Positions 1 to 14,856 of a stretch of 17,046 bases of DNA are shown in pieces. The stretch's first letter is position 1, and each line of letters begins with the position of its first letter. The notes below the pieces were generated by a model. The model was not told the DNA's origin. It worked only from the letters and a program-made list of their open reading frames with translations, and made no database searches. The stretch is from a virus (lineage: Duplodnaviria > Heunggongvirae > Uroviricota > Caudoviricetes), in the IMG/VR virus record IMGVR_UViG_2534682108_000005, positions 1 through 17,046 of that record, one strand, 5' to 3'. The position numbers and the translations under genes were made by a program.

Positions 1-70
1 TCCATTAAAAATGATGGACATTATTTTTGTAGAGCCAGAGGAAACAGACCAGACGGTTTAAATGAGCCGG

Positions 71-709: not shown

Positions 710-956
710 GAGTTAAAATCTCCTTCAGTGCATCATCATCGCCAGTATGAATTTCCGGCGCAATTCCCGTTTCACCAGGCCCAACAAATACTGCTCGGCG
801 ATCTATCAGCCAACGCCCACGAATTTTTTGTGGTCTTGGAACGATGTATCCTAGTTTTCCGTATTTCACCAGGGTAGTGTTTGTTATTGGGAGACTGAAC
901 CGTTTTGGTTTCCACTCGTCGAGCGTTATCAGGTACTGTTCGCTCATGGCTATCAC
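678..956 (-). CDS. Excisionase (Xis-like), overlapping the integrase start
   Basis: The 92-aa ORF contains YLITLDEWKPKRF, resembling the lambda Xis N-terminus (YLTLQEW). It overlaps the int start by about 30 nt, as in xis-int operons. The start could be the internal Met at 947. Confidence 0.6.
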   Translation of the reverse strand: MIAMSEQYLITLDEWKPKRFSLPITNTTLVKYGKLGYIVPRPQKIRGRWLIDRRAVFVGPGETGIAPEIHTGDDDALKEILTHVTEATKKQH

Positions 957-1008
957 TCCGGAACGCGCCAGTTGCAGAATATCAACGACAACTGGCGACG
1001 GTTGAACA

Positions 1009-3480
1009 TTAAAAATCAGCCTGACTCGGGATCAGTTTTTGCCAGATAACTGAAACGTATTTTGCCTGGTAACGGGCGTCATCAAGTGCATTATGGCGCT
1101 CACCTTCGAATGGAATAGCCGTTCTGGCATCGAAGTCTATGGCTTTCCCCAGCTCAACGATTGTGCGTACATCGCGATCGTTGTAGTAACGCCACGGGCA
1201 GGGGATCCCCTGCCGTTCGTATGAACGGCGCAAAATCGTGTTGTCGAAGTTGGCTCCATTTCCCCAAACCTGAACAAAAAATTCACCGGAGTTTTCGTCG
1301 ATAAATTCCCGCAATTGTAACAGTGCATCATCTAACGGGATTTCATCGGTCATAATGGCAGATTGCGCTTCGCGTGATTGCTTAAGCCACCATTTAATGG
1401 TGTCCCGATCAATGACTCCGCCAGCAGTTTCCAGATTGATAGTCTTACTAAATTCCGGTCCCATATCTCCGGTTTGCGGATCGAAAAATATTGCACCTAT
1501 TGAGATGATCGGGGCATCAGGATTTTTTCCCATGGTTTCAAGGTCGATCATTAGATGGTCACACGTCCTGCTGGTGGATGTGATTTCGTGATGACCGTTC
1601 ATCTTAATTGGGTGATCTGCCGTCTCGCCAGTTTCATTATCGCTATTGTGATGCTGATTGCCGCCAGTGTTCTCCTTGTGTGGATGTTCAGTGCCTTCCA
1701 TTTCCTCCGGATCATCTTCCTGAACTTCAACCTGATACTCTTCATCGAATGTTTCCTGGTATGTTGCGTCGCCCATTACCGCGCCACAATCAGGGCAGTT
1801 ACCGCCGCCGGTCTGACCGCAGGCGGTGCAGACTTTTTCCACTTCCTGTTGCGCCACTGATTCAGGCTGTTTCGTTTCTGGCTCGTTTTGTAACGCATTT
1901 GGGCTGTTTTGTTCCGCTTTTTGGTAGTTCCGTTCCGATTCATGCTGGTTCTGGTTCACAGAATCGCGGGTCTGGATCCCCTTAACCCATTTCGGATCAT
2001 TCGGGTCACTAATCCCTTCAACAAATTCACCACGTGATGCAGCAAGCAACTTATCGGCGTCAGGCTGGATGATATTGGCTGCCTGCATAATTTTGTTTAC
2101 TTCGTCAGCGGTAACTTTTATCGGCTCTGGTTGTTCTGAATCTTCAGCGGTATCTACATTTTGCGGTAAGCCCGTGTATGTGCCATTTTTTCGGGCAAAA
2201 TATTCTTCTTTTGTGATTTCAGTGGCGCCAGCAGCCAGTGCCTTATCCAGACCAGAAAGTTTGTTTGCGCGACCGTATTTTTCTCCGTCCTTATCTGCGA
2301 AGAGGAAATAGAACGGCCCCTCACGCTCTACAGATGGTTCGACTTCCACTTTGCATTCGGTTTTTTCGTTGTCTGGAATTGCCGTTTCCACTGCATCAGT
2401 TTCTGGTACTGGCGACGAGAGAGTATCAGTTGCGCTCTGATTTGTTCCTTCATCTTCAAACACGCCCTTTGTAGTCAGGTATTCAGTAATGTATTTGTTC
2501 AGTGCCACAGGGTCTTTGTGAATGTCGATCGGACGTTCACGGACAAGGCCAAAAATAGTCTGGCGGTCGTAGCGAAGGGCATCAGGCTGTTTGCGCATTG
2601 ATGCCGAGATACGCTTCCAGTCTTCGCGGTCGTTGTCGATAACTTCATTTTTTGCCCAGCGATGGATGCTGCCGTCAATGTTTCCGGCATCCACATCACC
2701 AGGCCAGAGAGCGTAGGCCAGTTCGTCATCCAGTGTTTTCCATGTCTGCTTGTATTCGCGATGAATGGCAGCAATGACCGGGTTGATTTTTCCTGTTGAA
2801 TTTTCAGTGTGTTGTTGATTGGCTCTGGCGCGGGCGAGATCAACAACAGACGTGTATTTTCCGGCTTCCTTGCGTTCACCTTCGCGACGTTTTTTCCAGA
2901 TGCGCATCTCTGCCTGAATTTCGGGCCATTTGGCACCAGGCTTACATTTATGCTTAACCCACCCGATGGCATGCAGCTTAAGCTCCGGATACATAGCGTT
3001 AACTTCTGGCATTTTCATCAACGCTTCAACGATGTGGCCGTCGAATGTTGCCATGTCTTCCTGCAACAATTCCTGTGCGCTAATCACCATATCAACAGTG
3101 ATGTTTTCACATGTGTCGAACTTAACCATGACAGCGTTCTGTACTTCAGGGGCTAGGTTGTCAAAAGTGACGTTCATCGGATCGGATTCAGTCTCGACCG
3201 GGACAAAGGAAGCAGACGCCTCATCCCAGCGGTTTTCCTGCATATATTCAGCATCCCAGGAATCGAGGGCAGGGCGGGGTATACCGGGTTTATCCTCGCA
3301 AACAAGAAATTTATAAGCGCAGTCCTGAGCAGCCGGATAATGTTCCAGGAATTGCCAGTGAAATTTTGCGCGGGCGCGACGTTCATCACCGGCTTCAATG
3401 GCAGTGGCTACAGCGACGGCACCTTCTTCCTTTATTGCCTGTTCGTCCGGAATGGCGGCGCAAATAAAGACTTTACTCAT
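1009..3480 (-). CDS. Large phage exonuclease (823 aa) with a C-terminal DnaQ-like DEDDh 3'-5' exonuclease domain; the kind of protein usually annotated exodeoxyribonuclease VIII-like in lambdoid prophages
   Basis: Long uninterrupted ORF. The C-terminal ~180 aa carry exonuclease motifs (MIDLETMG, FDPQTGD, HNALDDARYQ). A CxxC...CxxC zinc-ribbon-like motif (CTACGQTGGGNCPDCG) sits in an acidic low-complexity middle region. Position between xis and the dicB-like operon fits a recombination module. Confidence 0.8.
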   Translation of the reverse strand: MSKVFICAAIPDEQAIKEEGAVAVATAIEAGDERRARAKFHWQFLEHYPAAQDCAYKFLVCEDKPGIPRPALDSWDAEYMQENRWDEASASFVPVETESDPMNVTFDNLAPEVQNAVMVKFDTCENITVDMVISAQELLQEDMATFDGHIVEALMKMPEVNAMYPELKLHAIGWVKHKCKPGAKWPEIQAEMRIWKKRREGERKEAGKYTSVVDLARARANQQHTENSTGKINPVIAAIHREYKQTWKTLDDELAYALWPGDVDAGNIDGSIHRWAKNEVIDNDREDWKRISASMRKQPDALRYDRQTIFGLVRERPIDIHKDPVALNKYITEYLTTKGVFEDEGTNQSATDTLSSPVPETDAVETAIPDNEKTECKVEVEPSVEREGPFYFLFADKDGEKYGRANKLSGLDKALAAGATEITKEEYFARKNGTYTGLPQNVDTAEDSEQPEPIKVTADEVNKIMQAANIIQPDADKLLAASRGEFVEGISDPNDPKWVKGIQTRDSVNQNQHESERNYQKAEQNSPNALQNEPETKQPESVAQQEVEKVCTACGQTGGGNCPDCGAVMGDATYQETFDEEYQVEVQEDDPEEMEGTEHPHKENTGGNQHHNSDNETGETADHPIKMNGHHEITSTSRTCDHLMIDLETMGKNPDAPIISIGAIFFDPQTGDMGPEFSKTINLETAGGVIDRDTIKWWLKQSREAQSAIMTDEIPLDDALLQLREFIDENSGEFFVQVWGNGANFDNTILRRSYERQGIPCPWRYYNDRDVRTIVELGKAIDFDARTAIPFEGERHNALDDARYQAKYVSVIWQKLIPSQADF

Positions 3481-3572
3481 TTTGTTTTACCTCATTACAG
3501 ATTTAAGGGTGAACAAATCCCTGCCATTGCTGGCATATAAGAATGAAATCGGATGTTTATTACGGAACTGTT

Positions 3573-3764
3573 TTAAAGACCTGCCGGGATTTCGTTATTA
3601 TCCTGGTGAATAACTTTATCGACCGGGTAACAGTTACCGGGAATTTTCTGTTCGGTTGCTGCAGTCACACACTCCTGCATTGTCCTGTGAACACTGACTG
3701 CAGTATCAACTGGCTCTCCGGAAACAAGAAAAACTGTCAGAACAAGTGCAAATGCTGTATTCAT
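3573..3764 (-). CDS. ydfD: Small hydrophobic N-terminus protein (63 aa), YdfD-like by size and synteny
   Basis: Start at MNTAFALVLTVFLVSG with an AAGGA Shine-Dalgarno 8 nt upstream. Its ATG overlaps the stop of the upstream gene (ATGA). Size and position after the dicB-like gene match Qin ydfD as I recall it; not verified by alignment. Confidence 0.5.
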   Translation of the reverse strand: MNTAFALVLTVFLVSGEPVDTAVSVHRTMQECVTAATEQKIPGNCYPVDKVIHQDNNEIPAGL

Positions 3765-3949
3765 TGCCAGCATCCTTTTTGTATCGGACGTAAACGGGCC
3801 AACATTGAAAGAATGCATATTTTATTTAATAGCTCCCGTTCGTGTTTTCTCTTGTTAATGGCATCTTCAGTAAATACAGGGTTACTGATAGTGACACCAA
3901 TTTCAAAACAACCTTCAGACGTATTAACGTTTGGTAATAACGTTTCCAT
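3761..3949 (-). CDS. dicB: DicB-like cell-division inhibitor (62 aa)
   Basis: 62-aa ORF (METLLPNVNTSEGCFEIG...) with a GAGGA SD 7 nt upstream, lying immediately downstream of the DicF sequence on the same strand and translationally coupled to the next gene. Size and synteny match Qin dicB. Confidence 0.55.
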   Translation of the reverse strand: METLLPNVNTSEGCFEIGVTISNPVFTEDAINKRKHERELLNKICILSMLARLRPIQKGCWQ

Positions 3950-4118
3950 TATCGCGTCCTCAACAATGAATTTTGTGATGCGGTGCCTGGTGCCTCCAGG
4001 TGACGTTAACCAGTTAACAATTAACGCCGGATACAGAGAATCCACCCATAACACTGTTTTTGGTTTTAACTGTTCCGCGTGCGCTTAGCCGCATTCACCG
4101 CATCACAAAATTCACTTT

Positions 4119-4176
4119 AAAAAGGGCGGCAGAGCAGTCACGGAGTAAAACTGATACCGCCAAACGTCACCAGAAA
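4119..4176 (-). ncRNA. dicF: DicF small RNA (ftsZ-targeting antisense sRNA of Qin-type prophages) with its intrinsic terminator
   Basis: Minus-strand sequence UUUCUGGUGACGUUUGGCGGUAUCAGUUUUACUCCGUGACUGCUCUGCCGCCCUUUUU matches the DicF sequence as I recall it, including the 3' GC-rich stem and U-run. It sits between the ydfC-like and dicB-like genes as in Qin. Confidence 0.8.
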
Positions 4177-4517
4177 ATTGATAACAGAGGGCGTTGCAGC
4201 GGGATTGTCACTTAAGCGTATGGTCAACCTGACAACCCGGTGTCCTCAACGGGGGAAGGAATAACCCCGCCATACTTACCGCCGCGCCATTTCGCGGATT
4301 GCCACAACCGGAAGCGCACGGTCGACGAAAATTTAACGACAGGCTATCTATGAACCAGCTACCTCGCCGTGCGCTTTCGCGTTATGGTCTGACTTTTCAG
4401 GGAAATATCCTTTCAGTAAACTGTCAGTGCCGGATGCTCACCCGTGTCCGGCGCACGCACTCCACCTCACCCGTGGAGAACTCCTTAATTACCAACCTTA
4501 GCTTCGTTGGTTAGCTA

Positions 4518-4736
4518 TTAACGCGGGTATGTAATCATTCTGGCAATGCTTAATGCCGCTGCTTTTTCCAGATTGGTGATATCCTGCTCCAGAGCGGACA
4601 GATTTTCAGCCTGCTTAGCCCTGGCTTCATTGGCCCATTTCAAATCCTGCGCTGCATTAATTTTCTGGCGCATCCACTCATAAAGTTCATCATTGGTATA
4701 GTCTGGCGCGATGATGACGGGTTCTCGTTTCTGCAT
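4518..4736 (-). CDS. ydfC: Small protein (72 aa), YdfC-like by size and synteny
   Basis: 72-aa ORF third in the leftward small-gene operon, upstream of dicF. Size matches Qin ydfC. No catalytic motif recognised. Confidence 0.5.
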   Translation of the reverse strand: MQKREPVIIAPDYTNDELYEWMRQKINAAQDLKWANEARAKQAENLSALEQDITNLEKAAALSIARMITYPR

Positions 4737-4765
4737 ACTGATTCCTCGCGGTGCTGTTTCGCTTA

Positions 4766-4894
4766 TCAGCCGTTAGATTTTGCCGAACTGGAAAGCGCCT
4801 GTTTAAATTCGTTGAAGCTGAGAGCTTCTTCGCCTTCGGCAAGACCTTCGAAGTATTCTTCGTAAGCCTTTTCCATGATAGTGTCGAAATCCAT
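4766..4894 (-). CDS. ydfB: Small acidic protein (42 aa), YdfB-like by size and synteny
   Basis: Not in the ORF track because it is under 60 aa. Manual translation gives MDFDTIMEKAYEEYFEGLAEGEEALSFNEFKQALSSSAKSNG. An AGGTGA SD lies 5 nt upstream of the ATG at 4894; stop TGA at 4766-4768. Size matches Qin ydfB. Confidence 0.45.
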   Translation of the reverse strand: MDFDTIMEKAYEEYFEGLAEGEEALSFNEFKQALSSSAKSNG

Positions 4895-4895
4895 A

Positions 4896-5132
4896 TCACT
4901 CACCTGAGTTTCTTTCCAGCCAGCGACGGGCACCATTTTCGGTTTTAAACGTTTTGCTTTTGGTATACGTCATCGCGGTGAACGTACCGTCCTGGTTGGG
5001 GAACACGCCACATACCAGAGATTCGCTGTTGCCAAGATCGATAGTATCCATGCTGACATCATTTCCCCTTAACGCCGGGGTAGCGGAACAAAAACCTGCT
5101 GCATAGTTATTAAAGTTGAACCCTGCCGTCAT
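4896..5132 (-). CDS. ydfA: Small protein, YdfA-like; 78 aa from the ATG at 5132, or 51 aa from the internal ATG at 5051
   Basis: First gene of the leftward operon downstream of the terminator and operator site. The longer form has a GAGG SD about 9 nt upstream; the internal start gives the 51 aa I recall for Qin ydfA. Start not resolved. Confidence 0.45.
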   Translation of the reverse strand: MTAGFNFNNYAAGFCSATPALRGNDVSMDTIDLGNSESLVCGVFPNQDGTFTAMTYTKSKTFKTENGARRWLERNSGE

Positions 5133-5258
5133 GTTCTTACGCCTCGGGCTGGCTACTTAACCCCTGACCACTGCCGGGTAACTCGAAGTATTGCCTGGCG
5201 TTCTGTGGGGCGGGGTGGGTTGATGAATGAACAATACCACTACTATTTAATTATGTAA

Positions 5259-5271
5259 ATAGCAATGCTAT
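5259..5271. promoter_or_regulatory. Operator-like palindrome ATAGCAaTGCTAT in the promoter region of the leftward ydfA-dicB-like operon
   Basis: Two 6-bp inverted arms (ATAGCA/TGCTAT) around a central A, inside an AT-rich putative promoter between the terminator and the first operon gene. Near-identical sites occur in the repressor/cro intergenic region. Confidence 0.5.
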
Positions 5272-5282
5272 TATCGTAGCAA

Positions 5283-5306
5283 GAAAAAAACCACCCGAAG
5301 GTGGTT
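5283..5306 (-). terminator. Rho-independent terminator ending the repressor/toxin-antitoxin transcript
   Basis: On the minus strand: stem ACCACC, loop of 4 nt, stem GGTGGT, followed by a run of 8 U, 15 bp downstream of the ParE-like stop. Confidence 0.65.
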
Positions 5307-5320
5307 GTTGACAGGAAGGA

Positions 5321-5611
5321 TTAACAGGTTTTGTTTGGATACTGTCTTCGTGAGTGAACTACATTTACGATCTCGATGTTAGATGCTGTTACTCGGTAAA
5401 GTATTATATAGTTAGGATGAGTCACTATCTCACGAAGACTTGGAACTCTTTCGCTCGGTGGGTACAGATAAGGGTGTTCAGTAAGTGACAAAACTGATGT
5501 TTCAATGCGTATTTTTAGTCTACGTGCAGCGGGAGGGTTTTCCTTAGCAATATAGGCTACGATCTGACGTAAATCATCACGTGCAGAAGGTAGCCATAAA
5601 ATGGGCAGCAT
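5321..5611 (-). CDS. parE: ParE/RelE-superfamily toxin (96 aa) of a type II toxin-antitoxin module
   Basis: Size, basic C-terminus and overall pattern (...HPNYIILYRVTASNIEIVNVVHSRRQYP) resemble ParE toxins. Its start overlaps the stop of the upstream small gene by 1 nt, the typical antitoxin-toxin arrangement. Confidence 0.7.
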   Translation of the reverse strand: MLPILWLPSARDDLRQIVAYIAKENPPAARRLKIRIETSVLSLTEHPYLYPPSERVPSLREIVTHPNYIILYRVTASNIEIVNVVHSRRQYPNKTC

Positions 5612-5802
5612 TACTCACTCCTGTTCGTTGCAGCTAATTGAGCAATAAGGTTTTCCATTTCAGCCATTACTTCGTCATGTGGAATTGCAGGACGGGGATC
5701 TGAGAGGCTTGCTGCCACTTTGGCTCGCAACCATTCGTTATAGCTGTTTTCTTGTTCGACTGTTTCAAATTCAGAAATTATCGGGGAAAGGGCTGTACTC
5801 AT
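5611..5802 (-). CDS. Antitoxin (63 aa) cognate to the ParE-like toxin; PaaA-like
   Basis: Small acidic protein (MSTALSPIISEFETVEQENSYNEWLRAKVAASLSDPRP...) directly upstream of and coupled to the toxin gene. It resembles, from memory, PaaA-type antitoxins of the three-component paaR-paaA-parE systems of E. coli O157 prophages. Confidence 0.6.
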   Translation of the reverse strand: MSTALSPIISEFETVEQENSYNEWLRAKVAASLSDPRPAIPHDEVMAEMENLIAQLAATNRSE

Positions 5803-5819
5803 GTTTTGACCTCCTCAGA

Positions 5820-6320
5820 TTAGGCGCGACGACCCTTTTGCGCAGCTAGCCATCGCGCAACGATTTCTTCAATTGATTCTTTTTTCTCCTTCATTTCCTT
5901 AAGCATTTTCTCTTTATCTTCTTTGGGGAAAGCCCTGAACGTCTGGAGCAAATCCCGCTCCATGGGGTCTATATTAAACGGAAGTTCGTTTTCCGATTGT
6001 TCCATATCTGCAGATATAGTGACAACATTGTCCTCCCCAGATTCTTGGGGATACATCCTTACAATTTGTAACAACTCGGCCATATCTGGTCTGATTGACT
6101 CGGGAGGAACTTGCAGCAACCCTGCGAACTTGATAACAGCCTCAAGATTTAAAGGTGTCTGACCATTTAGATAATGGCTTACAGCTCCCTGTGTCGAAAA
6201 TCCCAGAATTTCTGCCGCACGCTCTTGGGTTAATCCTAGTTGATTTTTTTTCGCCGTCCAGATTTCTTTCAGTCTCTGGGCGGCTTGCAGGTCGATCTCT
6301 GACAGGGATTTTCTTTTCAT
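5820..6320 (-). CDS. XRE-family HTH repressor (166 aa) at the immunity position; DicA/PaaR-like, lacking an S24 peptidase domain
   Basis: N-terminal HTH (LTQERAAEILGFSTQGAVSHYLNG) and a charged helical C-terminus (KEDKEKMLKEMKEKKESIEEIVARWL), architecture like DicA. Divergent from the Cro-like gene, and directly upstream (18 bp) of the antitoxin-toxin pair on the same strand. Confidence 0.75.
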   Translation of the reverse strand: MKRKSLSEIDLQAAQRLKEIWTAKKNQLGLTQERAAEILGFSTQGAVSHYLNGQTPLNLEAVIKFAGLLQVPPESIRPDMAELLQIVRMYPQESGEDNVVTISADMEQSENELPFNIDPMERDLLQTFRAFPKEDKEKMLKEMKEKKESIEEIVARWLAAQKGRRA

Positions 6321-6427
6321 ACCTTCAATTCTAATAAGATTATTAATCTCTTTGAAATAGTAATGCTATTTACTTTTAAAAATAACAATGATATTAATGA
6401 TCGTGATGACATCACATGAGGTGAACA
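6321..6427. promoter_or_regulatory. Divergent immunity promoter/operator region with several palindromes
   Basis: AT-rich 107-bp intergenic region containing TAATAAgaTTATTA (6333-6346), ATAGTAaTGCTAT (6357-6369), ATAACAaTGATAT (6382-6394) and GTGATGaCATCAC (6403-6415). The GAGGTGA SD for the Cro-like gene is at 6418-6424. Confidence 0.6.
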
Positions 6428-6703
6428 ATGAATCTTGGAGAATATTTGCATCATTCCGGTATAACTCAGAAGCATTTTGCTGAAATTGTTGGGGTAACCC
6501 AGGGGATGGTAAGCCATGTCATTACCGGACGGGCGAAACTTACGGGGGAAAAAATTTTACGTTGGTGCGAAGCAACAGGCTGGATAGTAACTCCGCACGA
6601 GATTGATAGCAGTACTTATCCCAACCCAACCGACGGCTTACCTGTCGAGTTTCAGGCTAACACACAACCAGAGGCGGGGGTGATTCATGAAAATCAAGCA
6701 TGA
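6428..6703 (+). CDS. Cro-like small HTH regulator (91 aa), YdaS/DicC-type
   Basis: Divergent from the repressor. HTH signature KHFAEIVGVTQGMVSHVITGRAKLT; strong SD; overlaps the start of the next gene. Confidence 0.65.
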   Translation: MNLGEYLHHSGITQKHFAEIVGVTQGMVSHVITGRAKLTGEKILRWCEATGWIVTPHEIDSSTYPNPTDGLPVEFQANTQPEAGVIHENQA

Positions 6704-7112
6704 ACACATCCGCATGGCGATGAATGCGTGGGCATATCCTGACGGTGAGAAGGTGCCAGCTGCTGCTATTGCCAGAGCGTATTTTGAACTGGGGATGACA
6801 TATCCCGAGTTGCACAACGACGACAGGCACAACGCGCTCTATCTCAACACCCAAAAGATTTTCCGTTGGCTGGATAAAGACACTCCTGATGCTGTTGAGA
6901 AAATTCAGGCATTGTTACCGGCGATCGAAAGGGCAATGCCACCTCCGCTGGTAGCCCGAATGCGCAGCCACAGTTCCGCTTATTTTCGGGAGCTGGTGGA
7001 GACGCAGGAACGGCTAGTGAAAGATATCGATGATTTCGTTGCATCAGCGATCGTTCTGTTCGACCAGATGAATCGTGGTGGTCCGGCGGGTAATTCCGTG
7101 GCTGTGCATTGA
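6687..7112 (+). CDS. YdaT-like protein (141 aa), in the CII-like position downstream of cro
   Basis: The N-terminus MKIKHEHI and the ~140 aa length match what I recall for Rac YdaT. Position immediately after the Cro-like gene. Function assigned by position only. Confidence 0.5.
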   Translation: MKIKHEHIRMAMNAWAYPDGEKVPAAAIARAYFELGMTYPELHNDDRHNALYLNTQKIFRWLDKDTPDAVEKIQALLPAIERAMPPPLVARMRSHSSAYFRELVETQERLVKDIDDFVASAIVLFDQMNRGGPAGNSVAVH

Positions 7113-7183
7113 CTGAAAATATTTATACCGGATCGCTTCCGGCAATTCGTGAGTAAAAAGATTCGGTCTCAGAAGAGGTGAGT

Positions 7184-8224
7184 ATGGCTAATGCCTGGCT
7201 CAGATTATGGCATGACATGCCAAATGACCCTAAGTGGCGAACAATTTCCAGGGTGTCAGGACAGCCAATCGCAACAGTGATGGCTGTGTATATCCACCTT
7301 CTGGTGAGCGCGTCACGAAATGTCACGACATGTCACGGCGTGTCACTACGTGGTCACATTGATGTCACAACGGAAGATTTAGCAAGTGCACTTGATGTGA
7401 CGGAAGAAGTAATTGATTCAATTTTGCAGGCGATGCAGGGGCGGGTGCTTGATGGAGATTTAATCACTGGATGGGAAAAACGCCAGGTAGCGAAAGAGGA
7501 TAACGGCAATGTTTCGCAAACCGCGAAATCCCCGGCAGAGCGTAAGAGAGCACAACGCGAGAGGGAAAAATTACGAAAACAGAATGAGGGGTGTCACGAT
7601 GAGTCACGCATATGTCACGACATGTCACTACGAGTCACGACAGATAAAGATACAGATAAAGAATTAAACCCCACACATAACGCGCGCGTGCGCGAGAGTG
7701 CTCCGACCAGTGAATTGAACGGTACGCCGTTGCAGGCAGCGGAACCTGATTACCAGGAAAGCCTGAGCGAACCCATCGGGAAGTTTCCGATGGCCGGTGG
7801 CTGGCATCCGTCGCCGGATTTTCGACGGCGGGCTGCACTGTGGGGAGTGGCTCTGCCGGAGCCTGAATTTACACCTGCTGAACTTGCCGCCTTCAGGGAC
7901 TACTGGGCAGCGGAGGGGAAAGTTTTTACGCAGGTTCAGTGGGAGCAGAAATTCGCCCGTCACGTAAATCACGTCAGGGCGCAGGTTAAACCAGTCAGCA
8001 AGGGGGGGCGTCATTCAGCAGCACCAGGTGGCACCGCATCACGGGCAGTTCGGGAAATTCGGGCAGCACGTGAGCAGTGGGAACGTGAAAACGGATTTGT
8101 CAGCGACGGAAACGGCGTGGAAGCTGTGGGAGCTCATGGGGGAGGTTTATTCAAACCGCTGGACTCAGAAGAACGGGGCCGCACCTTCGAAGCTCTGGAT
8201 TGCCCAGATTGGCGCGATGACTGA
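7184..8224 (+). CDS. Replication initiator (O-like) with a DnaT-like C-terminal region; contains the putative origin iterons
   Basis: N-terminus MANAWLRLWHDMPNDPKWRTI is typical of phage replisome-organiser N-domains. Two clusters of GTCAC repeats lie inside the gene and a P-like gene follows. Start ambiguous between GTG 7178 and ATG 7184. Confidence 0.6.
   Translation: MANAWLRLWHDMPNDPKWRTISRVSGQPIATVMAVYIHLLVSASRNVTTCHGVSLRGHIDVTTEDLASALDVTEEVIDSILQAMQGRVLDGDLITGWEKRQVAKEDNGNVSQTAKSPAERKRAQREREKLRKQNEGCHDESRICHDMSLRVTTDKDTDKELNPTHNARVRESAPTSELNGTPLQAAEPDYQESLSEPIGKFPMAGGWHPSPDFRRRAALWGVALPEPEFTPAELAAFRDYWAAEGKVFTQVQWEQKFARHVNHVRAQVKPVSKGGRHSAAPGGTASRAVREIRAAREQWERENGFVSDGNGVEAVGAHGGGLFKPLDSEERGRTFEALDCPDWRDD
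7312..7368. repeat. Iteron array 1: six GTCAC-core repeats at 10-11 bp spacing
   Basis: cgTCACgaaa tgTCACgaca tgTCACggcg tgTCACtacg tggTCACatt gatgTCAC; cores at 7312, 7322, 7332, 7342, 7353 and 7364. Confidence 0.7.
7593..7670. repeat. Iteron array 2 (five GTCAC-core repeats) followed by an AT-rich tract with a tandem CAGATAAAGA repeat; candidate replication origin
   Basis: GTCAC cores at 7593, 7603, 7614, 7624 and 7633, then cagataaagatacagataaagaattaaa. Direct repeats plus an adjacent AT-rich region inside the initiator gene mirror lambda ori architecture. Confidence 0.6.
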
Positions 8225-8678
8225 ACAGCAAATCCGGCTGGTCTGCCGTCAGTGCATGGACCGCTGCCGGGCGGGTGAAACGTGGCCCCCGGACCTGGCT
8301 GAGTTTGTTGCGCTGATTTCGGAGAGTGGGGCAAATCCATTTGGTCTTACGGTGGATGCCGTGATGGAAGAGTACCGGCGCTGGCGCAATGAATCCTGGC
8401 GGTACGACGGGAGTGATAAATACCCGTGGCCACAGCCTGTGCTGTACCACATTTGCCTCGAGATGCGCACCAGAGGGATTGAACGTCAGATGACTGAAAG
8501 TGAGCTGAAACGACTTGCAGAACGACTGTTGACCAAATGGGCAAAGAATGTTGGTAACGGCATGAGTGTTCCGCCAGTGCGACGACAACTGGAAGGGCCA
8601 AAACACCCGCCAGGGCCAACGCCAATTGAGTTACTGAAACAGGAATATGAGCGCCGGAAAGCGGCTGGTTTTGTCTGA
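8028..8678 (+). CDS. Replication protein P-like (lambda P family, helicase loader)
   Basis: C-terminal half aligns by eye to lambda P (YPWPQPVLYHICLEMRTRG...TESELKRLAERLL versus lambda YPWKSNAHYWLVTNLYQNMR...TDAELRRKAADELV). The ORF begins with GTG at 8028 and overlaps the O-like gene; alternative starts are ATG 8136 and ATG 8217, the latter overlapping the O stop. Confidence 0.6.
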   Translation: MAPHHGQFGKFGQHVSSGNVKTDLSATETAWKLWELMGEVYSNRWTQKNGAAPSKLWIAQIGAMTEQQIRLVCRQCMDRCRAGETWPPDLAEFVALISESGANPFGLTVDAVMEEYRRWRNESWRYDGSDKYPWPQPVLYHICLEMRTRGIERQMTESELKRLAERLLTKWAKNVGNGMSVPPVRRQLEGPKHPPGPTPIELLKQEYERRKAAGFV

Positions 8679-8711
8679 ATTTGAGAAATGATTTTGTCGG
8701 AGGAAATTTTA

Positions 8712-9425
8712 ATGGAAACCGTTTTTGACGCACTGAAAGCACTGAAAAGAGCCTCTTCACAGGAGGTGTCGGCCCGCCTTGGAATCAGCCGCGAAGATGC
8801 TGTCAACGAGCTGTGGAAGCTGAAACGCCGTGGTGAAGCAGATAACAAGGGGTCGATGTGGTGGCTGACGATTGAGGCAACTGAAATGGTCACAAAAACC
8901 ACTGCGGAGATGCTGATTAACGCAATTGAACAGCATGGTCCTCAGTCGGCTGACGAACTGGCGTTAATGTTCGGGATTACCTCCCGCCGGGCGAATTCAA
9001 CGCTGGCAATGGCAATAAGCAAAGGTCGTCTGATTCGAGTAAATCAGAACGGTAAATTTCGTTACTGCCTGCCGGGCGATAATTTACCAGCAGAGCCGAA
9101 AGCTGCATCGGTAACGGAAACTGCTGGTAAAGCCTTTCCTCAGACAGCAGGTGTTGCGTTACCAGTCCGGGAAGCGGAAACACAGGAAGAAATTAAAACT
9201 GAAAGTGTGGCGGTCACAGTGCAGTCACAGCCGTCGTTCACCAGAAAGCATCCGGATAGTCTGATTTTACCATCGCTGCATGTGGCTAACCGCGAACTGC
9301 GCCGGGCAAAAGGTCAGGTTCAGAAGTGGGAGCGAGTCTGTGCTGCGCTGCGTGAGCTGAACAAGCACCAGGATATTGTTCGACAGATTACTGATTCATC
9401 CTGTTGTGTTGCATCAGAAAAGTGA
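8712..9425 (+). CDS. Hypothetical phage protein (237 aa) with two tandem winged-helix-like repeats
   Basis: GGAGG SD 9 nt upstream of the ATG at 8712. Internal repeat pattern L..A......S..ELA..LGIS....A...L.KL...G at residues ~5-50 and ~70-115. No catalytic motif recognised. Confidence 0.5.
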
Positions 9426-9440
9426 TTGCAGGGGACGCTG

Positions 9441-9857
9441 ATGGCAAGAGTATTTACACCAGAAGAGCGGGAAAAAATTAAGGGGCAGGTTGTTGAACTC
9501 GTACGCCAGAGCGGTCGCGAGACGTTACGGCAACTGGAAGCTAAAACAGGTGCAACAAGATATCTGGTGAGCGTTCTCGCCAGAGAGCTGGTTGCCAGTG
9601 GTGATGTATACAACTCTGTCTACGGGTTATTTCCGTCTGAACAGGCTCGTAAGGACTGGCAAAATGCCCGAAAAAAACTCACTAGGGCAAGGGCGAAGAA
9701 ACCCGCTGTGGTTGATCCGGGCCTTATCTGGTCATTAGATGACGGAGAAATACGTCGCTACGACAGGCGTCATAATATAATTTGTAATGAGTGCCGTAAC
9801 AGTGAAGTGATGCAGAGAGTTTTGATATTTTACACAGGAGTAATGATGGAGCAGTGA
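9441..9857 (+). CDS. Hypothetical phage protein (138 aa) with one winged-helix-like segment and a C-terminal Cys-containing tail
   Basis: AGGGGA SD before the ATG at 9441. The segment VELVRQSGRETLRQLEAKTGATRYLVSVLARELVASGDV resembles the repeats of the preceding gene. The 3' end runs into the AT-rich island. Confidence 0.45.
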   Translation: MARVFTPEEREKIKGQVVELVRQSGRETLRQLEAKTGATRYLVSVLARELVASGDVYNSVYGLFPSEQARKDWQNARKKLTRARAKKPAVVDPGLIWSLDDGEIRRYDRRHNIICNECRNSEVMQRVLIFYTGVMMEQ

Positions 9858-10221
9858 AAACAATATGAAATCTTTAGCTTCTGGTATTGTAACAGATGGG
9901 AAAAGTGTAGATATATGGAAATTGCATAGCAATAATTCGCAGCATGGATGCTATTCGTATGTTGATAAAGTGGTCCCAGTATGCGAGTGTAAGAGTTGAA
10001 CCAGTTCCAACTAAGAAATTGGGGGGATAATATAGAAGGTGGCTAAGTGAATGTGCTTATGATTATCTGAAAAACAAATGGAATGTTTTAATGGGTCTAA
10101 GAACACAGCAATGCACAAATTAGGGGTTATCTTTTACTGTGCTTATTAATATGCTCAATGACCCATTAGGATTGGTGTCAGTTATGTTAGCCAGAGTGAT
10201 AAAGTGATTATATCTCTGCTG

Positions 10222-10995
10222 TTATATGCTGAAATGAGTAATACTATTCCAGAGTGCAGCAGCGAAAGTCTCCTGATGATTGAGTTCTGGAAATTGTACG
10301 ACAGAAAAATTACTATATTTTTCTGCTAAAATATTTTTCAAAACAGATTCTGCTTTAATGGCTTCAGGATATAAAGATGTGGAGTAATCAAGGCTAAGAT
10401 CTCCGCTAAGTAAGCATATACTTTTAGTATGCTTTGATTCTGGCATGTCATTTTTTATGATCTTGATGATTCTTTCATCCTGCCATAGAAGTGATGGTGC
10501 TGAGATATAATAATAGTTAAAACATGAATTATTTTTTAAACAATCAAGAACAAAAATAGCACCTAGTGAGTGTCCCCATATACCGAGTTTTGAGGATGTC
10601 GGAACAATGGTGCTGACCCAGGGCATGATCTGAGTTAGCAATAATTCTCGGAAACTCTGACTTCCTCCACCAGTGAAGTAGATCCATGCTGGTTTGGAGT
10701 TATCAATAATAGCATTTTCACCACCAGGAGTGTAATCGTAAGCACGGCGGTGAATATTAAGCTTATCCAAAGATTCGTAACTCAGTGTAACTAACACTGG
10801 TGGATTGGGTAGTGCATCAATAACAGGAAGAATATCAGAAATGTTATTGTTGGCGCTATTTCCATCAAGTATATAAAGAGTTGTATTATTTTTTTTAATG
10901 TTTTTTGGAGTAAAAACGCATATTTTATATTTTGTGTCATAGTTAATTGAGTTAAATATGCGTGTTTGACAATGAATGTCCATGTGTTTAGTCAT
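10222..10995 (-). CDS. Alpha/beta-hydrolase serine esterase (257 aa) in an AT-rich island; cargo gene on the opposite strand
   Basis: GHSLG nucleophile-elbow motif (G-x-S-x-G) in LGIWGHSLGAIFVLDCL, consistent with the esterase D/Fes-like fold. No signal peptide seen. GGGGAG SD upstream. Markedly lower GC than flanking phage genes. Confidence 0.7.
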   Translation of the reverse strand: MTKHMDIHCQTRIFNSINYDTKYKICVFTPKNIKKNNTTLYILDGNSANNNISDILPVIDALPNPPVLVTLSYESLDKLNIHRRAYDYTPGGENAIIDNSKPAWIYFTGGGSQSFRELLLTQIMPWVSTIVPTSSKLGIWGHSLGAIFVLDCLKNNSCFNYYYISAPSLLWQDERIIKIIKNDMPESKHTKSICLLSGDLSLDYSTSLYPEAIKAESVLKNILAEKYSNFSVVQFPELNHQETFAAALWNSITHFSI

Positions 10996-11102
10996 ACGTT
11001 CTCCCCATGAGCATTAAAGGATTATTAAGATATGCTATGTCACTGATGAACAATTTGTTGTATGAATCTAGGTTTTTTATCTACCTCCATTATGATTTAA
11101 TC

Positions 11103-11121
11103 GCTGATATATGTTATCAGC
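11103..11121. promoter_or_regulatory. Inverted repeat GCTGATA-n5-TATCAGC in the promoter region of the esterase gene
   Basis: 7-bp perfect inverted arms separated by 5 bp, about 110 bp upstream of the esterase start, next to a candidate -10 (CATAAT on the minus strand). Confidence 0.4.
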
Positions 11122-11699
11122 AAAGGTACATCGTTACTGTTTTACTTGTCAATACATTTGATATTGATTCTCGTTCGCATCGTTTGTTCAGGGATTTGAA
11201 GACAGATAACTGCTATGTCAATGAACCAACCCACAGTCCAACGTACTTCAGCAAAATATGGCGTCGGGATATAGCACCCTGATATTCACCACGGCAAACA
11301 CACGCCGAGAGTGTTTTTTTATCGTCGTATGTACGTGCACATCTGAATAATGGCAGGCGAATGTGATAGCCGAAAAGCTCACCGTGCGGTGATCCGGTAG
11401 TTTCACCCTGTACGTCTCATAACCCGATGATTGAGACCTTAAGCAAAACAATAACAAGGGAGCGTCATTATGACCACTCAAACTGATTTCATATTGGCGA
11501 TGTAATGGGAAGTTAAGTAGAATGGCAGCGGGTGCTTGAGGCTATCTGTCTCAGGCATGAACACCAAAAGGCAGATAGAGAAAAGCCCCAGTTAACATTG
11601 CGCGTCCGGCAAGACGCTTAACATTAATCTGAGGCCATATCTATGCTCTACACACGTAGGTTAGCCTCTTACGTGCCGAAAGGCAAGGAGAAGCAGGCT

Positions 11700-11855
11700 A
11701 TGAAGCAGCAAAAGGCGATGCTAATCGCCCTGATCGTCATCTGTTTAACCGTCATTGTGACGGCACTGGTAACGAGGAAAGACCTCTGCGAGGTATGAAT
11801 CCGAACCGGCCAGACGGAGGTCGCTGTCTTCACAGTCTACGAACCTGAGGAGTAA
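11700..11855 (+). pseudogene. hokD: hok/gef-family type I toxin gene (HokD/RelF-like) interrupted by an in-frame TGA at codon 33
   Basis: Translation MKQQKAMLIALIVICLTVIVTALVTRKDLCEV, then TGA at 11796-11798, then in frame IRTGQTEVAVFTVYEPEE and TAA at 11853-11855. This matches HokD as I recall it, with the stop where Arg is expected. AGGAG SD 9 nt upstream. Structured leader (CTATCTG...CAGATAG) upstream and a 3' stem-loop at 11862-11884. Confidence 0.7.
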
Positions 11856-11923
11856 GAGACCAGGCGGGGGAGAAATCTCCCGCCACCTCTGATGTGTCAG
11901 GCATCCTCAACGCACCCGCGCTT

Positions 11924-11950
11924 AACCCGCTTCGTCGGGTTTTGTTTTTT
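11924..11950 (+). terminator. Rho-independent terminator downstream of the hok locus
   Basis: Stem AACCCG, 6-nt loop, stem CGGGTT, followed by TTTTGTTTTTT. Confidence 0.6.
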
Positions 11951-12022
11951 CCTGGCATTCTGGTTTACAATTCGCACGTCAGCCTGAACAACTGGCACCT
12001 GCTGCGCCAGCAGAGACAACCG

Positions 12023-12301
12023 ATGGCGCACGATACCAAATCACACAATTCTGATAATTCAGCCGTCTTTGCCAGCAGGCACGGGCGGCGTTTGCACGCA
12101 TTTAAAACTCGCTGGTATCAGCACCCTCCATGCACTGAAGAACAGGCTGAATGGCTAATTCAGAGCTACCGCAGACGTGGCTATGAGGTTCAGAAAGATC
12201 TCAGCCTCGACCGACTGCACTGGATAATCTCTGTGAGGCTCCCTTACTCCGAGCGCCCACCGCGTCCATCCCGCACATTCCAGCAACGTATCTGGAGGTA
12301 A
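12023..12301 (+). CDS. Hypothetical protein (92 aa) in the position occupied by rem in Qin
   Basis: The ORF track extends it to a GTG at 11894, but that region contains the terminator; the first ATG is at 12023. Its stop is adjacent to the next gene's start. No motif recognised. Confidence 0.4.
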   Translation: MAHDTKSHNSDNSAVFASRHGRRLHAFKTRWYQHPPCTEEQAEWLIQSYRRRGYEVQKDLSLDRLHWIISVRLPYSERPPRPSRTFQQRIWR

Positions 12302-12302
12302 C

Positions 12303-13352
12303 GTGCGGGTATTACTTCGACCTGTTCTTGTGCCAGAACTCGGGCTGGTGATCGTTAAGCCGGGCCATGAATCCATGCCGGTATTCCAAAATACCCGGGT
12401 ACTGGTGGAGCCGGAACCGAAAAGCATGCGTAATCTGCCGTCCGGGGTCGTTCCTGCCGTTCGCCAGCCGCTGGCGGAGGATAAATCATTACTGCCATTT
12501 TTCAGCGACGAACGAGTGATTCGTGCTGCTGGTGGCGCTGGCGCATTGTCTGACTGGTTACTGCGCCATGTTAAATCCTGCCAGTGGCCACACGGCGATT
12601 ATCACCACAGTGAAACCGTCATTCACCGTTATGGCGCTGGCGCGATGGTGTTGTGCTGGCACTGTGACAACCAGCTGCGTGACCAGACATCCGAATCACT
12701 CGGGCAACTTGCTCATCAAAACCTGTCAGCATGGATGATTGACGTCATACGCCATGCAATGAATGGCACGCAGGAGCGGGAATTGTCGCTGGCTGAATTA
12801 TCCTGGTGGGCGGTCTGCAATCAGGTGGCGGACGCGCTTCCGGAGGCAGTATTACGTCGTTCTCTGGGGTTACGTGCGGAAAAAATCCGCTCGGTGTATC
12901 GCGAAAGCGACATCATACCGGGAGAGCAGACCGCCACCAGCATACTGAAGCAGCGCACAAAAAATATTGCGCCGCCGTCTCACGCCCGCCAGCAACAGAA
13001 CCCACCACAGGAAAAGACGGTGGTATGCATCACCGTTGATCCGGAGTCTCCGGAATCTTTCATGAGGCGACCTAAACGTCGCCGTTGGGTAAATGAGAAA
13101 TATACGCGCTGGGTGAAGACACAGCCGTGTGCGTGTTGTGGTCAGCCAGCCGACGATCCCCATCACCTGATTGGTCACGGTCAGGGAGGGATGGGAACAA
13201 AGGCCCACGATATTTTCACGCTACCGTTGTGCCGGGAACATCACAACGAACTTCATGCGGATCCGCTGGCGTTCGAAGAAAAGCATGGTTCTCAGATTGA
13301 TTTAATTTTTCGTTTTCTTGATCACGCCTTTGCAACTGGCGTGCTTGGGTAA
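12303..13352 (+). CDS. ydfU: DUF968-like protein (349 aa), YdfU-like, with a C-terminal Cys/His-rich putative nuclease or zinc-binding motif
   Basis: GTG start with a GGAGG SD 4 nt upstream. C-terminus PCACCGQPADDPHHLIGHGQGG...LCREHHNELH. Size and position before rusA and Q match Qin ydfU as I recall it. Confidence 0.6.
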   Translation: MRVLLRPVLVPELGLVIVKPGHESMPVFQNTRVLVEPEPKSMRNLPSGVVPAVRQPLAEDKSLLPFFSDERVIRAAGGAGALSDWLLRHVKSCQWPHGDYHHSETVIHRYGAGAMVLCWHCDNQLRDQTSESLGQLAHQNLSAWMIDVIRHAMNGTQERELSLAELSWWAVCNQVADALPEAVLRRSLGLRAEKIRSVYRESDIIPGEQTATSILKQRTKNIAPPSHARQQQNPPQEKTVVCITVDPESPESFMRRPKRRRWVNEKYTRWVKTQPCACCGQPADDPHHLIGHGQGGMGTKAHDIFTLPLCREHHNELHADPLAFEEKHGSQIDLIFRFLDHAFATGVLG

Positions 13353-13364
13353 AAGAGGTGACTG

Positions 13365-13724
13365 ATGCTCATAGATTTGGTTTTACCTTACCCGCCGACG
13401 GTGAACACTTACTGGCGACGCCGTGGCAGCACATATTTTATCTCGGAGGAGGGAAAGCGTTATCGCCGGGCTGTGGCGCTTATTGTTCGCCAGCAGCGGC
13501 TGAAATTAAGCCTGTCCGGAAGGCTGGTGATAAAGGTGATTGCAGAGCCACCGGATAAGCGTCGTCGCGACCTGGACAACATTCTGAAAGCACCGCTGGA
13601 TGCGCTGACGCATGCGGGAGTGCTCATTGATGACGAGCAGTTTGATGAAATCAATATTGTACGTGGTCAGCCAGTATCTGGTGGACGGCTGGGTGTGAAG
13701 ATTTACAAAATTGAGAGTGAGTGA
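13365..13724 (+). CDS. rusA: Holliday-junction resolvase RusA
   Basis: 119 aa with VIAEPPDKRRRDLDNILKAPLDALTHAGVLIDDEQ, matching the RusA catalytic region (DRRRRDLDN...DALT). Position before Q as in DLP12/82-type prophages. Confidence 0.85.
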   Translation: MLIDLVLPYPPTVNTYWRRRGSTYFISEEGKRYRRAVALIVRQQRLKLSLSGRLVIKVIAEPPDKRRRDLDNILKAPLDALTHAGVLIDDEQFDEINIVRGQPVSGGRLGVKIYKIESE

Positions 13725-13732
13725 GCGTAAAT

Positions 13733-14284
13733 ATGATATATCCGGAAATTACAGGCAAAAGCGGCGAACATTTACGCCTGAACACGCTGGAAGCAGTCTG
13801 GATCCAGGGGAAATTACGGATGTGGGGGCGGTGGTCGTATATCGGTGGGGGTAAATCCGGAAATATGTTTAACCGGTTACTGGTTTCGAAAAAGCTGACG
13901 AAAACAGCAGTTAATGAGGTTTTGCGCAGAATGAAGAAATCCGGGCTGGAAAAACCGGAACTTGAGGCATTTTTTCGGGATATGACAAGAGGAAAGCAGA
14001 AGAGCTGGTTGTCACATTGTACAGACACAGAGGCGTTGATTATTGATCGCGTTATCAGTAAGGTGCTTGGGGAATATCCTGGACTAATCAATGTTCTCCG
14101 GCAAAGGTACGAAGGACGGGGAATGAGCAAACTGAAAATGGCCGAAAGGTTAAATGCAGATCATCCTGATTGGTCGTTGGTTACGTGCAGACGCCGAATT
14201 GATCAATGGTTGGGGGTATCTGAATTTATGTTATATGCCCCCATGCGCATGGCTTTTGTTACAGAGAAAAATGTTGCAAACTGA
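13733..14284 (+). CDS. Late-gene antiterminator Q-like protein
   Basis: Position immediately after rusA and before a promoter-plus-terminator pair. A WGRWS motif loosely resembles Q-family proteins. Start may be GTG 13721, overlapping the rusA stop. Confidence 0.5.
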   Translation: MIYPEITGKSGEHLRLNTLEAVWIQGKLRMWGRWSYIGGGKSGNMFNRLLVSKKLTKTAVNEVLRRMKKSGLEKPELEAFFRDMTRGKQKSWLSHCTDTEALIIDRVISKVLGEYPGLINVLRQRYEGRGMSKLKMAERLNADHPDWSLVTCRRRIDQWLGVSEFMLYAPMRMAFVTEKNVAN

Positions 14285-14311
14285 TCAATAAACTGCTTCA
14301 ATCCGTATAAG
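14282..14311 (+). promoter_or_regulatory. Candidate late promoter (pR'-like): -35 TGATCA, 18-bp spacer, -10 TATAAG
   Basis: Sigma70-like hexamers directly after the Q-like stop, followed about 50-70 nt later by an intrinsic terminator; the lambdoid pR'/tR' arrangement. Confidence 0.4.
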
Positions 14312-14364
14312 CTTCGCAAAGCTGTATCGCGAGGCGAAACGCAAGTTTTTTTCGCAAAAGGAAG

Positions 14365-14385
14365 CCACCGGAAGGTGGTTTTTTT
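14365..14385 (+). terminator. Rho-independent terminator (tR'-like) downstream of the candidate late promoter
   Basis: Stem CCACC, loop GGAA, stem GGTGG, followed by TTTTTTT. Confidence 0.65.
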
Positions 14386-14508
14386 GTGTCCGCGATATAC
14401 AGTAGCGCAATAAATTCGCTGGTGGTTATTAATACCGTTCTTTCAGCTTGCTGGCTTTTTCGACAAGAGTTATTGGTGTGTCACGTTAACCGGAAAAGGG
14501 AAAAAGAC

Positions 14509-14706
14509 ATGCTAAAACAGCAGGATATGACAGAAACCGCCAGAGTGGTGTTTAATGAATTAAGCGTTACCGAACCGGCGACAGTCGGGGAGATAGCGCA
14601 GAATACTTACCTTTCACGCGAACGCTGCCAGTTAATACTGACCCAGCTTGTTATGGCGGGTCTGGCAGACTATCAGTTCGGTTGTTACAGACGCCTTCAG
14701 TCCTGA
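14509..14706 (+). CDS. Small putative winged-helix DNA-binding protein (65 aa)
   Basis: First ATG with a purine-rich SD (AAAGGGAAAAAG). The segment VVFNELSVTEPATVGEIAQNTYLSRERCQLILTQLVMAGLAD resembles the wH repeats in the post-P genes. Followed by a terminator. Confidence 0.4.
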   Translation: MLKQQDMTETARVVFNELSVTEPATVGEIAQNTYLSRERCQLILTQLVMAGLADYQFGCYRRLQS

Positions 14707-14715
14707 AGGCTTTTT
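14692..14715 (+). terminator. Rho-independent terminator
   Basis: Stem GCCTTCA, 4-nt loop, stem TGAAGGC, followed by TTTTTTATTT, overlapping the stop of the small gene. Confidence 0.6.
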
Positions 14716-14856
14716 TATTTGTGGTAAATGGGCGGCTGGTGGGTGTTAGGGGCACTCACCAGCCATCTGCTCATGCGTCTGGATCACAAGCAAACCTCAG
14801 GCCCATTGCTTTGCGCAAAAGCAGAATGAGCCTATCAGAGACAAGCTTAATGATCC

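Follow-up and report, generated by a model that had tools for sequence, protein, structure and literature searches.

Phased GTCAC iteron arrays within a prophage initiator gene as a candidate replication origin

Gene organization and repeat arrays

The DNA analysed here, referred to as the window, is a stretch of 17,046 nucleotides (nt) covering positions 1 to 17,046 of the virus record IMGVR_UViG_2534682108_000005. It represents a Rac/Qin-like lambdoid prophage of Escherichia coli and is 100% identical to NZ_CP062876. We examined its initiator gene, which is of the replisome-organiser type and carries two arrays of the short repeat GTCAC that may be part of a replication origin. The gene order is CI-like repressor (minus strand), Cro-like helix-turn-helix protein, YdaT-like protein, initiator, lambda-P-like protein, DUF1627 and DUF977, and the start of the P-like gene overlaps the 3' end of the initiator gene. 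From its N-terminus, the initiator has a predicted winged-helix domain, then a basic helix and a disordered linker, and finally a DnaT-like domain. The features are compiled in Table 1.

Table 1. Features of the initiator gene and its surroundings (window coordinates).
Feature	Position	Strand	Evidence or remark
Initiator gene (replisome-organiser type), 346 residues	7184..8224	+	open reading frame; RefSeq WP_001262421.1; PHROG
Coding region of the N-terminal DNA-binding module (residues 1-136; DNA binding predicted)	7184..7591	+	structure model
Array A, six direct GTCAC(G) iterons	7312..7369	+	starts 7312, 7322, 7332, 7342, 7353, 7364
In-frame 21-nt insertion (residues 49-55, TCHGVSL), two extra iteron units	7328..7348	+	alignments; phage Evi sequence
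Single inverted iteron core (GTGAC on the plus strand)	7397..7401	-	33 nt past array A
Array B, five direct GTCAC(G) iterons	7593..7639	+	starts 7593, 7603, 7614, 7624, 7634
A-rich tract with purine strand bias, ACAGATAAAGA twice, then ATTAAA; candidate DNA-unwinding element	7640..7668	+	
GC-rich dyad CGCGCGCGTGCGCG directly past the A-rich tract	7681..7694		sequence; common to Rac-SA53 ydaU
DnaT DNA-binding domain (residues 201-267)	7784..7984	+	Pfam PF17948, 63.4 bits against a cut-off of 25
Lambda-P-like helicase-loader gene	8217..8678	+	Pfam PF06992, 57.8 bits; RefSeq 'replication protein P'

An earlier sequence-only reading of the window had listed eleven direct cores, six at 7312-7368 and five in a second cluster, with coordinates that proved right to within one base. 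The second cluster had been ended at 7637 and actually runs one base further, its last core ending at 7638, and the inverted core past array A had been missed. Start-to-start distances are 10, 10, 10, 11 and 11 nt in array A and 10, 11, 10 and 10 nt in array B, i.e., 10.25-10.4 nt per unit, so that the cores lie on approximately one face of the helix, as had been proposed from a 10-11 bp spacing. The two arrays are 224 nt apart, and seven of the eleven direct cores are extended to GTCACG.

Both arrays were also recovered by repeat finders, and among all 5-mers of the window GTCAC is the most clustered. When the window was simulated 2000 times with a first-order Markov model, at most four copies of GTCAC were found per 60 nt (four in a single simulation), as compared to the six observed, which rules out chance clustering as the origin of the arrays. 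Further copies of GTCAC occur at 4137, 4166 and 4207, where they are isolated or paired and were treated as incidental. Two cores 11 nt apart (GCGGTCACAGTGCAGTCACAGCC), starting at 9213 and 9224, are located at 9213-9228 within the DUF1627 gene; they were likewise treated as incidental and may be due to chance or represent a stray initiator site.

The core is read in three frames, giving V-T, x-H (G/C-H) and x-S-R. The peptides encoded by the repeats are NVTTCHGVSLRGHIDVTT and GCHDESRICHDMSLRVTT, in which the CH and VTT motifs that the repeats were thought to impose on the protein can be recognized.

Conservation of the repeats at the DNA level

Homologues in Klebsiella, Enterobacter, Pseudomonas, Chromobacterium, Achromobacter and others are 58-67% identical in the N-terminal domain, and the protein alignment shows no variation at the residues that the cores encode. 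Codon usage was analysed in 19 non-redundant homologues from gamma- and beta-proteobacteria. In array A, the codons of V47 (GTC), T48 (ACG), G57 (GGT), H58 (CAC) and V61 (GTC) are the same in 19 of 19 sequences and that of S44 (TCA) in 18 of 19. The inverted core fixes V72 as GTG (17/17), and array B fixes H138 as CAC (18/18), S141 as TCA (19/19) and V151 as GTC (19/19). In the same genes, the background use of these core codons is 15-54%, for example 22% for GTC, 24% for GGT and 15% for TCA. Codon entropy at the cores is 0-0.3 bit, whereas equally conserved arginine, leucine, proline, valine and glycine positions elsewhere in the domain have 1.5-2.4 bits. This comparison indicates that the GTCAC arrays are under purifying selection at the level of the DNA itself.

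For a comparison of positions, the DNA of 38 loci was taken from a collection with one genome per species. Checking against related loci, as the sequence-only reading had proposed, placed the cores at the same gene offsets in 23 of the 38: direct copies at +128, 138, 148 and 159, an inverted copy at +192, and three to five cores at about +386 to +417. These 23 loci come from Escherichia, Shigella, Entomomonas, Aquitalea, Serratia, Rahnella, Gilvimarinus, Pseudomonas, Bordetella, Chromobacterium, Acidovorax, Pseudothauera, Castellaniella and other genera. Their spacing is 10 nt in 100 cases and 11 nt in 33, and across loci the sixth base is G (GTCACG) in 84-86% of the copies. The gap between the arrays is mostly 227 or 229 nt, or about 21.8 helical turns. 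The split into two arrays, which had been called unusual, is thus a conserved property of the family and not peculiar to this prophage.

Repeat classes in related loci

Not all relatives use GTCAC. Both arrays belong to a GTAACG class in loci from Pantoea (L022), Enterobacter (L025), Marinobacter (L034) and Sphingomonas (L035), and a CGAACGC class is present in L029, L031, L033 and L038, with copies at +131, 141 and 151 and at +362 and 372 in L029 and L031. An Erwinia locus (L024) has GTCACG at a tight spacing of 5 nt. In L025 the inverted copy has switched as well: the peptide D-V-T is kept and GTG is replaced by the synonymous GTT, which gives the core GTTAC. An unsupervised count found the same top 5-mer in both regions in 21 of 35 genes, while the top word of region B in most of the others was the GATAA tract. 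The two arrays change sequence in a concerted manner between subfamilies. Protein differences between the classes fall in the basic helix and in the segments encoded by the iterons.

The Erwinia locus and the Pantoea and Enterobacter loci L022 and L025 (+141 to +450) share the protein subfamily and the layout, and their cores are one base apart (GTCAC versus GTAAC). A further copy, at +223, falls within the predicted recognition helix, where it encodes histidine (CAC) in L024 and asparagine (AAC) in L022 and L025. Since this copy encodes the putative reading-head residue, the change of the site and the change of the residue would be one and the same mutation.

Two loci, from Serratia (L037) and Pantoea (L039), have the N-terminal domain fused to another C-terminus with a GIY-YIG-like motif (YVYYV...GIS.NPW.R). 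Here, repeats containing TACGTA at +300 to +380 take the place of both arrays.

The A-rich tract and module exchange

Directly past array B, the two copies of ACAGATAAAGA occupy 7640-7650 and 7652-7662. The segment 7639-7668 has 23% GC and 77% purine on the plus strand; it is the least stable 30-mer within 7100-7800 and ranks in the top 0.8% over the whole window. The AT-rich tract with a tandem repeat that had been noticed after the second cluster is therefore real. In nearly all loci, and in every repeat class, a AGATAAAGATAAAGA-like sequence is found within a few bases of the last iteron. The 40 nt following the iterons are 65-82% AT and 65-85% purine in most loci, the weakest tracts being those of L038 (42% AT), L026 (50%) and L029 (57%, here counted from a stray core further downstream). 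At the start of the tract the codons are frozen too (D154 as GAT in 18/18, K155 as AAA), and many homologues have a GC-rich dyad 3' of the tract.

The Rac-type YdaU, with an unrelated DUF1376 N-terminus and no GTCAC, nevertheless has a similar tract and an identical dyad, which suggests that the A-rich tract is a generic element common to different initiator types. The tract also marks the joint of a mosaic. Over positions 7100-7662 the sequence shares about 86% identity with phages Evi, Tritos and 640R1, over 7645-8300 it shares about 92% with Rac-SA53 ydaU-ydaV, and the crossover between the Evi-like and Rac-like parts falls within the tract (7640-7665). Hence, the tract appears to serve as a recombination joint between initiator modules. 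The N-terminal domain is the only part that stays with the arrays from locus to locus; both the C-terminal domain and every neighbouring gene vary. The next gene 3' encodes a lambda-P-like or a DnaC/IstB-like loader.

A GATAAA-type tract is also retained in L030, L032 and L036, and in L036 it consists of (GATAAA)x8, encoding DKDKDK. A sequence similar to a DnaA box (TTATCCACA), namely TATATCCACC at 7291-7300, lies just upstream of array A. Phage Evi retains it, and other genera (e.g., L022 and L025) use different nucleotides at those codons.

Copy number varies between close relatives. Array A has six copies in this lineage and four in most relatives, the difference being due to the TCHGVSL insertion. 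Among 78 close relatives in IMG/VR, 89-99% identical, the combination of six copies in array A and five in array B was found in 48 loci, 6+4 in 24, 4+5 in four and 5+3 in two, so that array A has six copies in 72, four in 4 and five in 2. The scan gave no new specificity classes.

The initiator protein

RefSeq labels WP_001262421.1 as a 'DnaT-like ssDNA-binding domain-containing protein'. The NCBIfam equivalog model for DnaT (NF002770) scores 96.7 bits, under its cut-off of 201, and covers residues 186-269 only. The initiator is not a full-length DnaT equivalog; the likeness is confined to the Pfam DnaT domain. With the N-terminal 139 residues, PHROG families annotated as 'replication initiation protein' matched at 3e-81 to 6e-112, and families of replisome organizers and DnaD-like helicase loaders matched weakly (E-values of 3e-5 to 4e-7). 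A Pfam search with the N-terminal domain gave no match at E-values up to 10, including Phage_rep_org_N, and a Pfam search with the initiator revealed neither a Phage_rep_O nor a Rep_3-type match.

An AlphaFold model of residues 1-172 has a mean predicted local distance difference test score (pLDDT) of 70.5, the core blocks scoring 91-97. Five helices (4-11, 16-25, 29-48, 63-70 and 74-84) are followed by a beta hairpin at 85-96 and then by a basic helix at 117-135, and the tail is disordered. Helices 63-70 and 74-84 and the hairpin form a winged helix-turn-helix, preceded by a loop of low confidence. Structure comparison of the predicted model revealed resemblance to the N-terminal domain (NTD) of DnaD and to staphylococcal plasmid RepA, and the domain may be a DnaD-NTD-like winged helix. 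Array A encodes residues 43-62, i.e., the end of the third helix and the low-confidence loop. Array B encodes residues 137-152 in the predicted disordered linker and, together with the tract, covers residues 137-160 of the disordered tail. Because the arrays encode low-confidence or disordered segments, the DNA signals appear to be placed in the most tolerant parts of the protein, as in lambda O.

A probable replication origin and alternative explanations

The comparisons suggest that the arrays are probably iterons for the N-terminal module encoded by the same gene, and that the prophage replicates from an origin made up of these arrays, the A-rich tract and the dyad. This reading is favoured because the arrays are selected at the DNA level, the repeat classes change in concert, the order of iterons and tract is conserved, and the gene is surrounded by replication genes. 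The comparative evidence thereby favours the candidate origin of the sequence-only reading, which envisaged iterons and an AT-rich element within the initiator gene, following lambda-like logic with a different repeat and a split.

We infer initiator binding, array association, tract melting and helicase loading, in a sequence that could be as follows. Upon derepression, the initiator would be produced from the early rightward operon. Its N-terminal module would occupy the sites spaced by 10-11 nt on one helix face in both arrays, as well as the inverted site. The protein-covered arrays, about 22 helical turns apart, could then associate, constraining or bending the DNA between them, and the resulting stress would open the adjacent A-rich tract. 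The DnaT-like domain and the linker would hold the single strand, and the P-like protein would bring the host DnaB.

Several observations weigh against this origin. The constant gap between the arrays may merely reflect the fixed length of the encoded domain, and the co-inheritance of arrays and N-terminal domain is no proof on its own that the domain binds them: as the arrays lie in the coding sequence of the domain, it is physically unavoidable. Three loci from metagenome-assembled genomes of Entomomonas and Ventosimonas (L030, L032 and L036) are without recognisable arrays, so the layout is not universal in the family. Compared to the intergenic AT-rich DNA of the same window, the tract is only moderately unstable. 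Furthermore, a literature search (Rac oriJ, ydaU, GTCAC iterons, replisome organisers, Stx-phage Eru) gave no description of this origin, and in a paper on the replication region of Stx-phage 'Eru' the terms iteron, origin and DnaT are all absent.

A different division of roles, which we consider rather unlikely, is that the origin proper consists of array B, the tract and the dyad, and that array A with the inverted copy is a separate control element recognized by the same binder. Array A could then act in autoregulation by blocking transcription, in titration or handcuffing of the initiator, or as a replication enhancer like P4 crr or P1 incA. Array B alone indeed gives the lambda order of iterons, A-rich tract and palindrome, near the gene offset of lambda, and in lambda two iterons beside the AT-rich tract are enough in vitro (PMC7466680). 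The number of copies in array A is four, five or six among close relatives that retain the gene. On the other hand, the synonymous sites of array A are as strictly conserved as those of array B, array A switches sequence class along with array B, and in Stx phages the iterons distal to the AT tract are still required for replication in vivo (PMC7466680). Control and origin functions of array A are also compatible with each other.

It is highly improbable that the arrays bind another factor, of the host or of the phage, for a purpose unrelated to initiation (transcription control, packaging or recombination, for instance). The A-rich tract demonstrably forms a recombination junction, but the crossover sits in the tract and outside the arrays, and within about 3 kb nothing but the N-terminal domain is conserved together with the arrays across genera. 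A conserved host factor is argued against since the repeat class differs among relatives in similar hosts (GTCAC in Erwinia, GTAAC in Pantoea and Enterobacter), and the order of iterons, tract and dyad with loader genes downstream fits an origin.

That the repeats serve the protein, with C-H and V-T-T motifs for metal binding or structure and the DNA period as a by-product, has next to no probability and is contradicted by the codon analysis: invariant residues would agree with it, but a protein-level cause is excluded because one pentamer is read in three frames, its synonymous sites are frozen while neighbouring conserved residues use every synonymous codon, subfamilies that use a different DNA core encode quite unlike peptides at this position, and the segments concerned are predicted to be loop or disordered.

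Comparison with known initiator systems

In phage lambda, the origin is located inside gene O and consists of iterons followed by an A-rich tract and a palindrome (PMC7466680; lambda record). The prophage locus resembles it in having the putative origin within the initiator gene, at the end of the part coding for the DNA-binding domain and linker, with direct repeats followed by a purine-biased A-rich tract, a dyad and a gene for a P-type loader. Array B, tract and dyad match the lambda elements in order and nearly in position, the dyad standing where lambda has the palindrome to the right of its origin. In both systems, the N-terminal half with the iterons and the C-terminal half with P appear to be exchangeable modules with crossovers in the A-rich tract; the GenBank record of lambda gives recombination points in its own A-rich origin tract, at 39157/39165 (L044 658-667). 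Extra iterons also lengthen the initiator in both cases, by 13 residues in Stx phages (PMC7466680) and by seven here.

The differences from lambda are equally clear. The iterons here have an asymmetric 6-bp core every 10-11 bp, whereas the lambda record shows four 18-bp iterons at offset +348 to +432 of the O gene, 20-24 bp from start to start. Lambda iterons have internal dyad symmetry and are bound by O dimers, and dyad-symmetric iterons of about 18-19 bp as in lambda are not found here. There is a second array about 229 bp upstream, in the region coding for the DNA-binding domain, together with a single inverted copy, and the C-terminal part of the protein is a DnaT-like domain. Alignment of the initiator profile to lambda O with hhalign gave a probability of 0.1, i.e., no homology. 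The designation 'O-like gene' in the sequence-only reading therefore holds for role and position, and not for sequence, in which no homology to lambda O was detected.

The replisome organizer gp38 of phage SPP1 binds direct repeats of oriL that lie within gene 38, beside an AT-rich unwinding element (PMC6316719). Likewise, the gene studied here holds direct repeats of its own as well as an AT-rich element, a likeness at the sequence level only, and loader genes are located downstream (loader and helicase genes in SPP1). A DnaD-NTD-like fold may be a further resemblance, and NCBI names members of the cluster 'phage replisome organizer'. With gp38, however, the hhalign probability was also 0.1, and no homology was found. 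The second copy of the binding region in SPP1, oriR, is about 13 kbp from oriL (PMC6316719), whereas the second array here lies within the same gene, at a distance of 230 bp. SPP1 has Firmicutes as hosts, and the family studied here has Proteobacteria.

The predicted N-terminal fold also resembles RepA_N of staphylococcal multiresistance plasmids (pSK41 type; PDB 4pta). Sequence similarity was not detected, and that system is a plasmid with one central repeat set and without a DnaT-like domain or P-like partner. With the Rac YdaU/oriJ region (Rac-SA53 ydaU-ydaV), the window shares about 90% identity in the C-terminal half of the gene, from about 7645 on, as well as in the tract of GATACAGAT type, the dyad CGCGCGCGTGCGCG and the P-like gene. 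YdaU differs by its DUF1376 N-terminal domain and the absence of GTCAC arrays, and sites equivalent to the iterons, if any, are different. Iteron plasmids of the RepA/pi/TrfA type have iterons of 17-22 bp outside the rep gene, unlike the 10-11 bp period within the gene here, and a tandem winged-helix Rep, for which the initiator shows no Rep_3-type Pfam match.

Distribution and implications

Of 5426 complete E. coli genomes, 2186 (about 40%) carry the module of N-terminal domain and iterons, among them O157:H7 strains and CFT073, and a single genome may hold up to five copies. Prophages of many gamma- and beta-proteobacteria have it as well, and the family numbers roughly 700 members or more. 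The module is found in only 24 deposited phage records, none of which is a classic model phage. In databases, the gene is annotated as nothing more than 'DnaT-like', 'hypothetical' or 'replisome organizer'. Judged by sequence, the locus would thus belong to a known kind, the iteron origin inside an initiator gene, in a layout that is distinct, very common and, as far as we found, undescribed.

A more far-reaching proposal, which we advance only tentatively, is that this layout constitutes a distinct and widespread architecture. Two co-evolving arrays of 6-bp iterons, with one copy per helical turn and lying over the coding region of the DNA-binding domain and linker of the initiator, would loop or wrap about 230 bp to melt a conserved GATAAA-type tract. 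Shared iteron specificity would let one induced prophage fire the origins of others, and specificity would be switched by single-base changes. Cross-firing is conceivable because as many as five prophages residing in one E. coli genome have the same iteron specificity; if the proposal is true, co-resident origins that could be fired include those of cryptic prophages. Single-base switches such as GTCAC to GTAAC would then change both the sites and the amino acids that they encode.

Once the cis elements are known, origins may be annotated for a large share of enterobacterial prophages, and co-resident prophages with shared initiator specificity may be predicted, including possible cross-activation or interference. 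The design of minimal replicons is a possible use. The arrays are also an unusually clean case of a DNA signal over coding sequence: a word of 5-6 nt that is read in three frames sets both synonymous codons and residues, and appears to be replaced as a set when specificity changes.

Other features of the window

In the source genome, the integrase gene is truncated by an IS66-family element (L041 1-2610, left of the window), and the prophage is therefore probably unable to excise alone. A RelE/RelB toxin-antitoxin pair (5321-5802, minus strand) adjoins the CI-like repressor gene (5820-6320, minus strand). The early-left region contains a 13-nt tandem repeat, GTAATAACGTTTG x1.9, at 3921-3945. 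Three tRNA genes are located in the late region within 15956-16205: Met(CAT), Arg(TCG) and Arg(TCT). The Met(CAT) tRNA is called Ile in RefSeq and is probably of the lysidine-modified Ile2 type.

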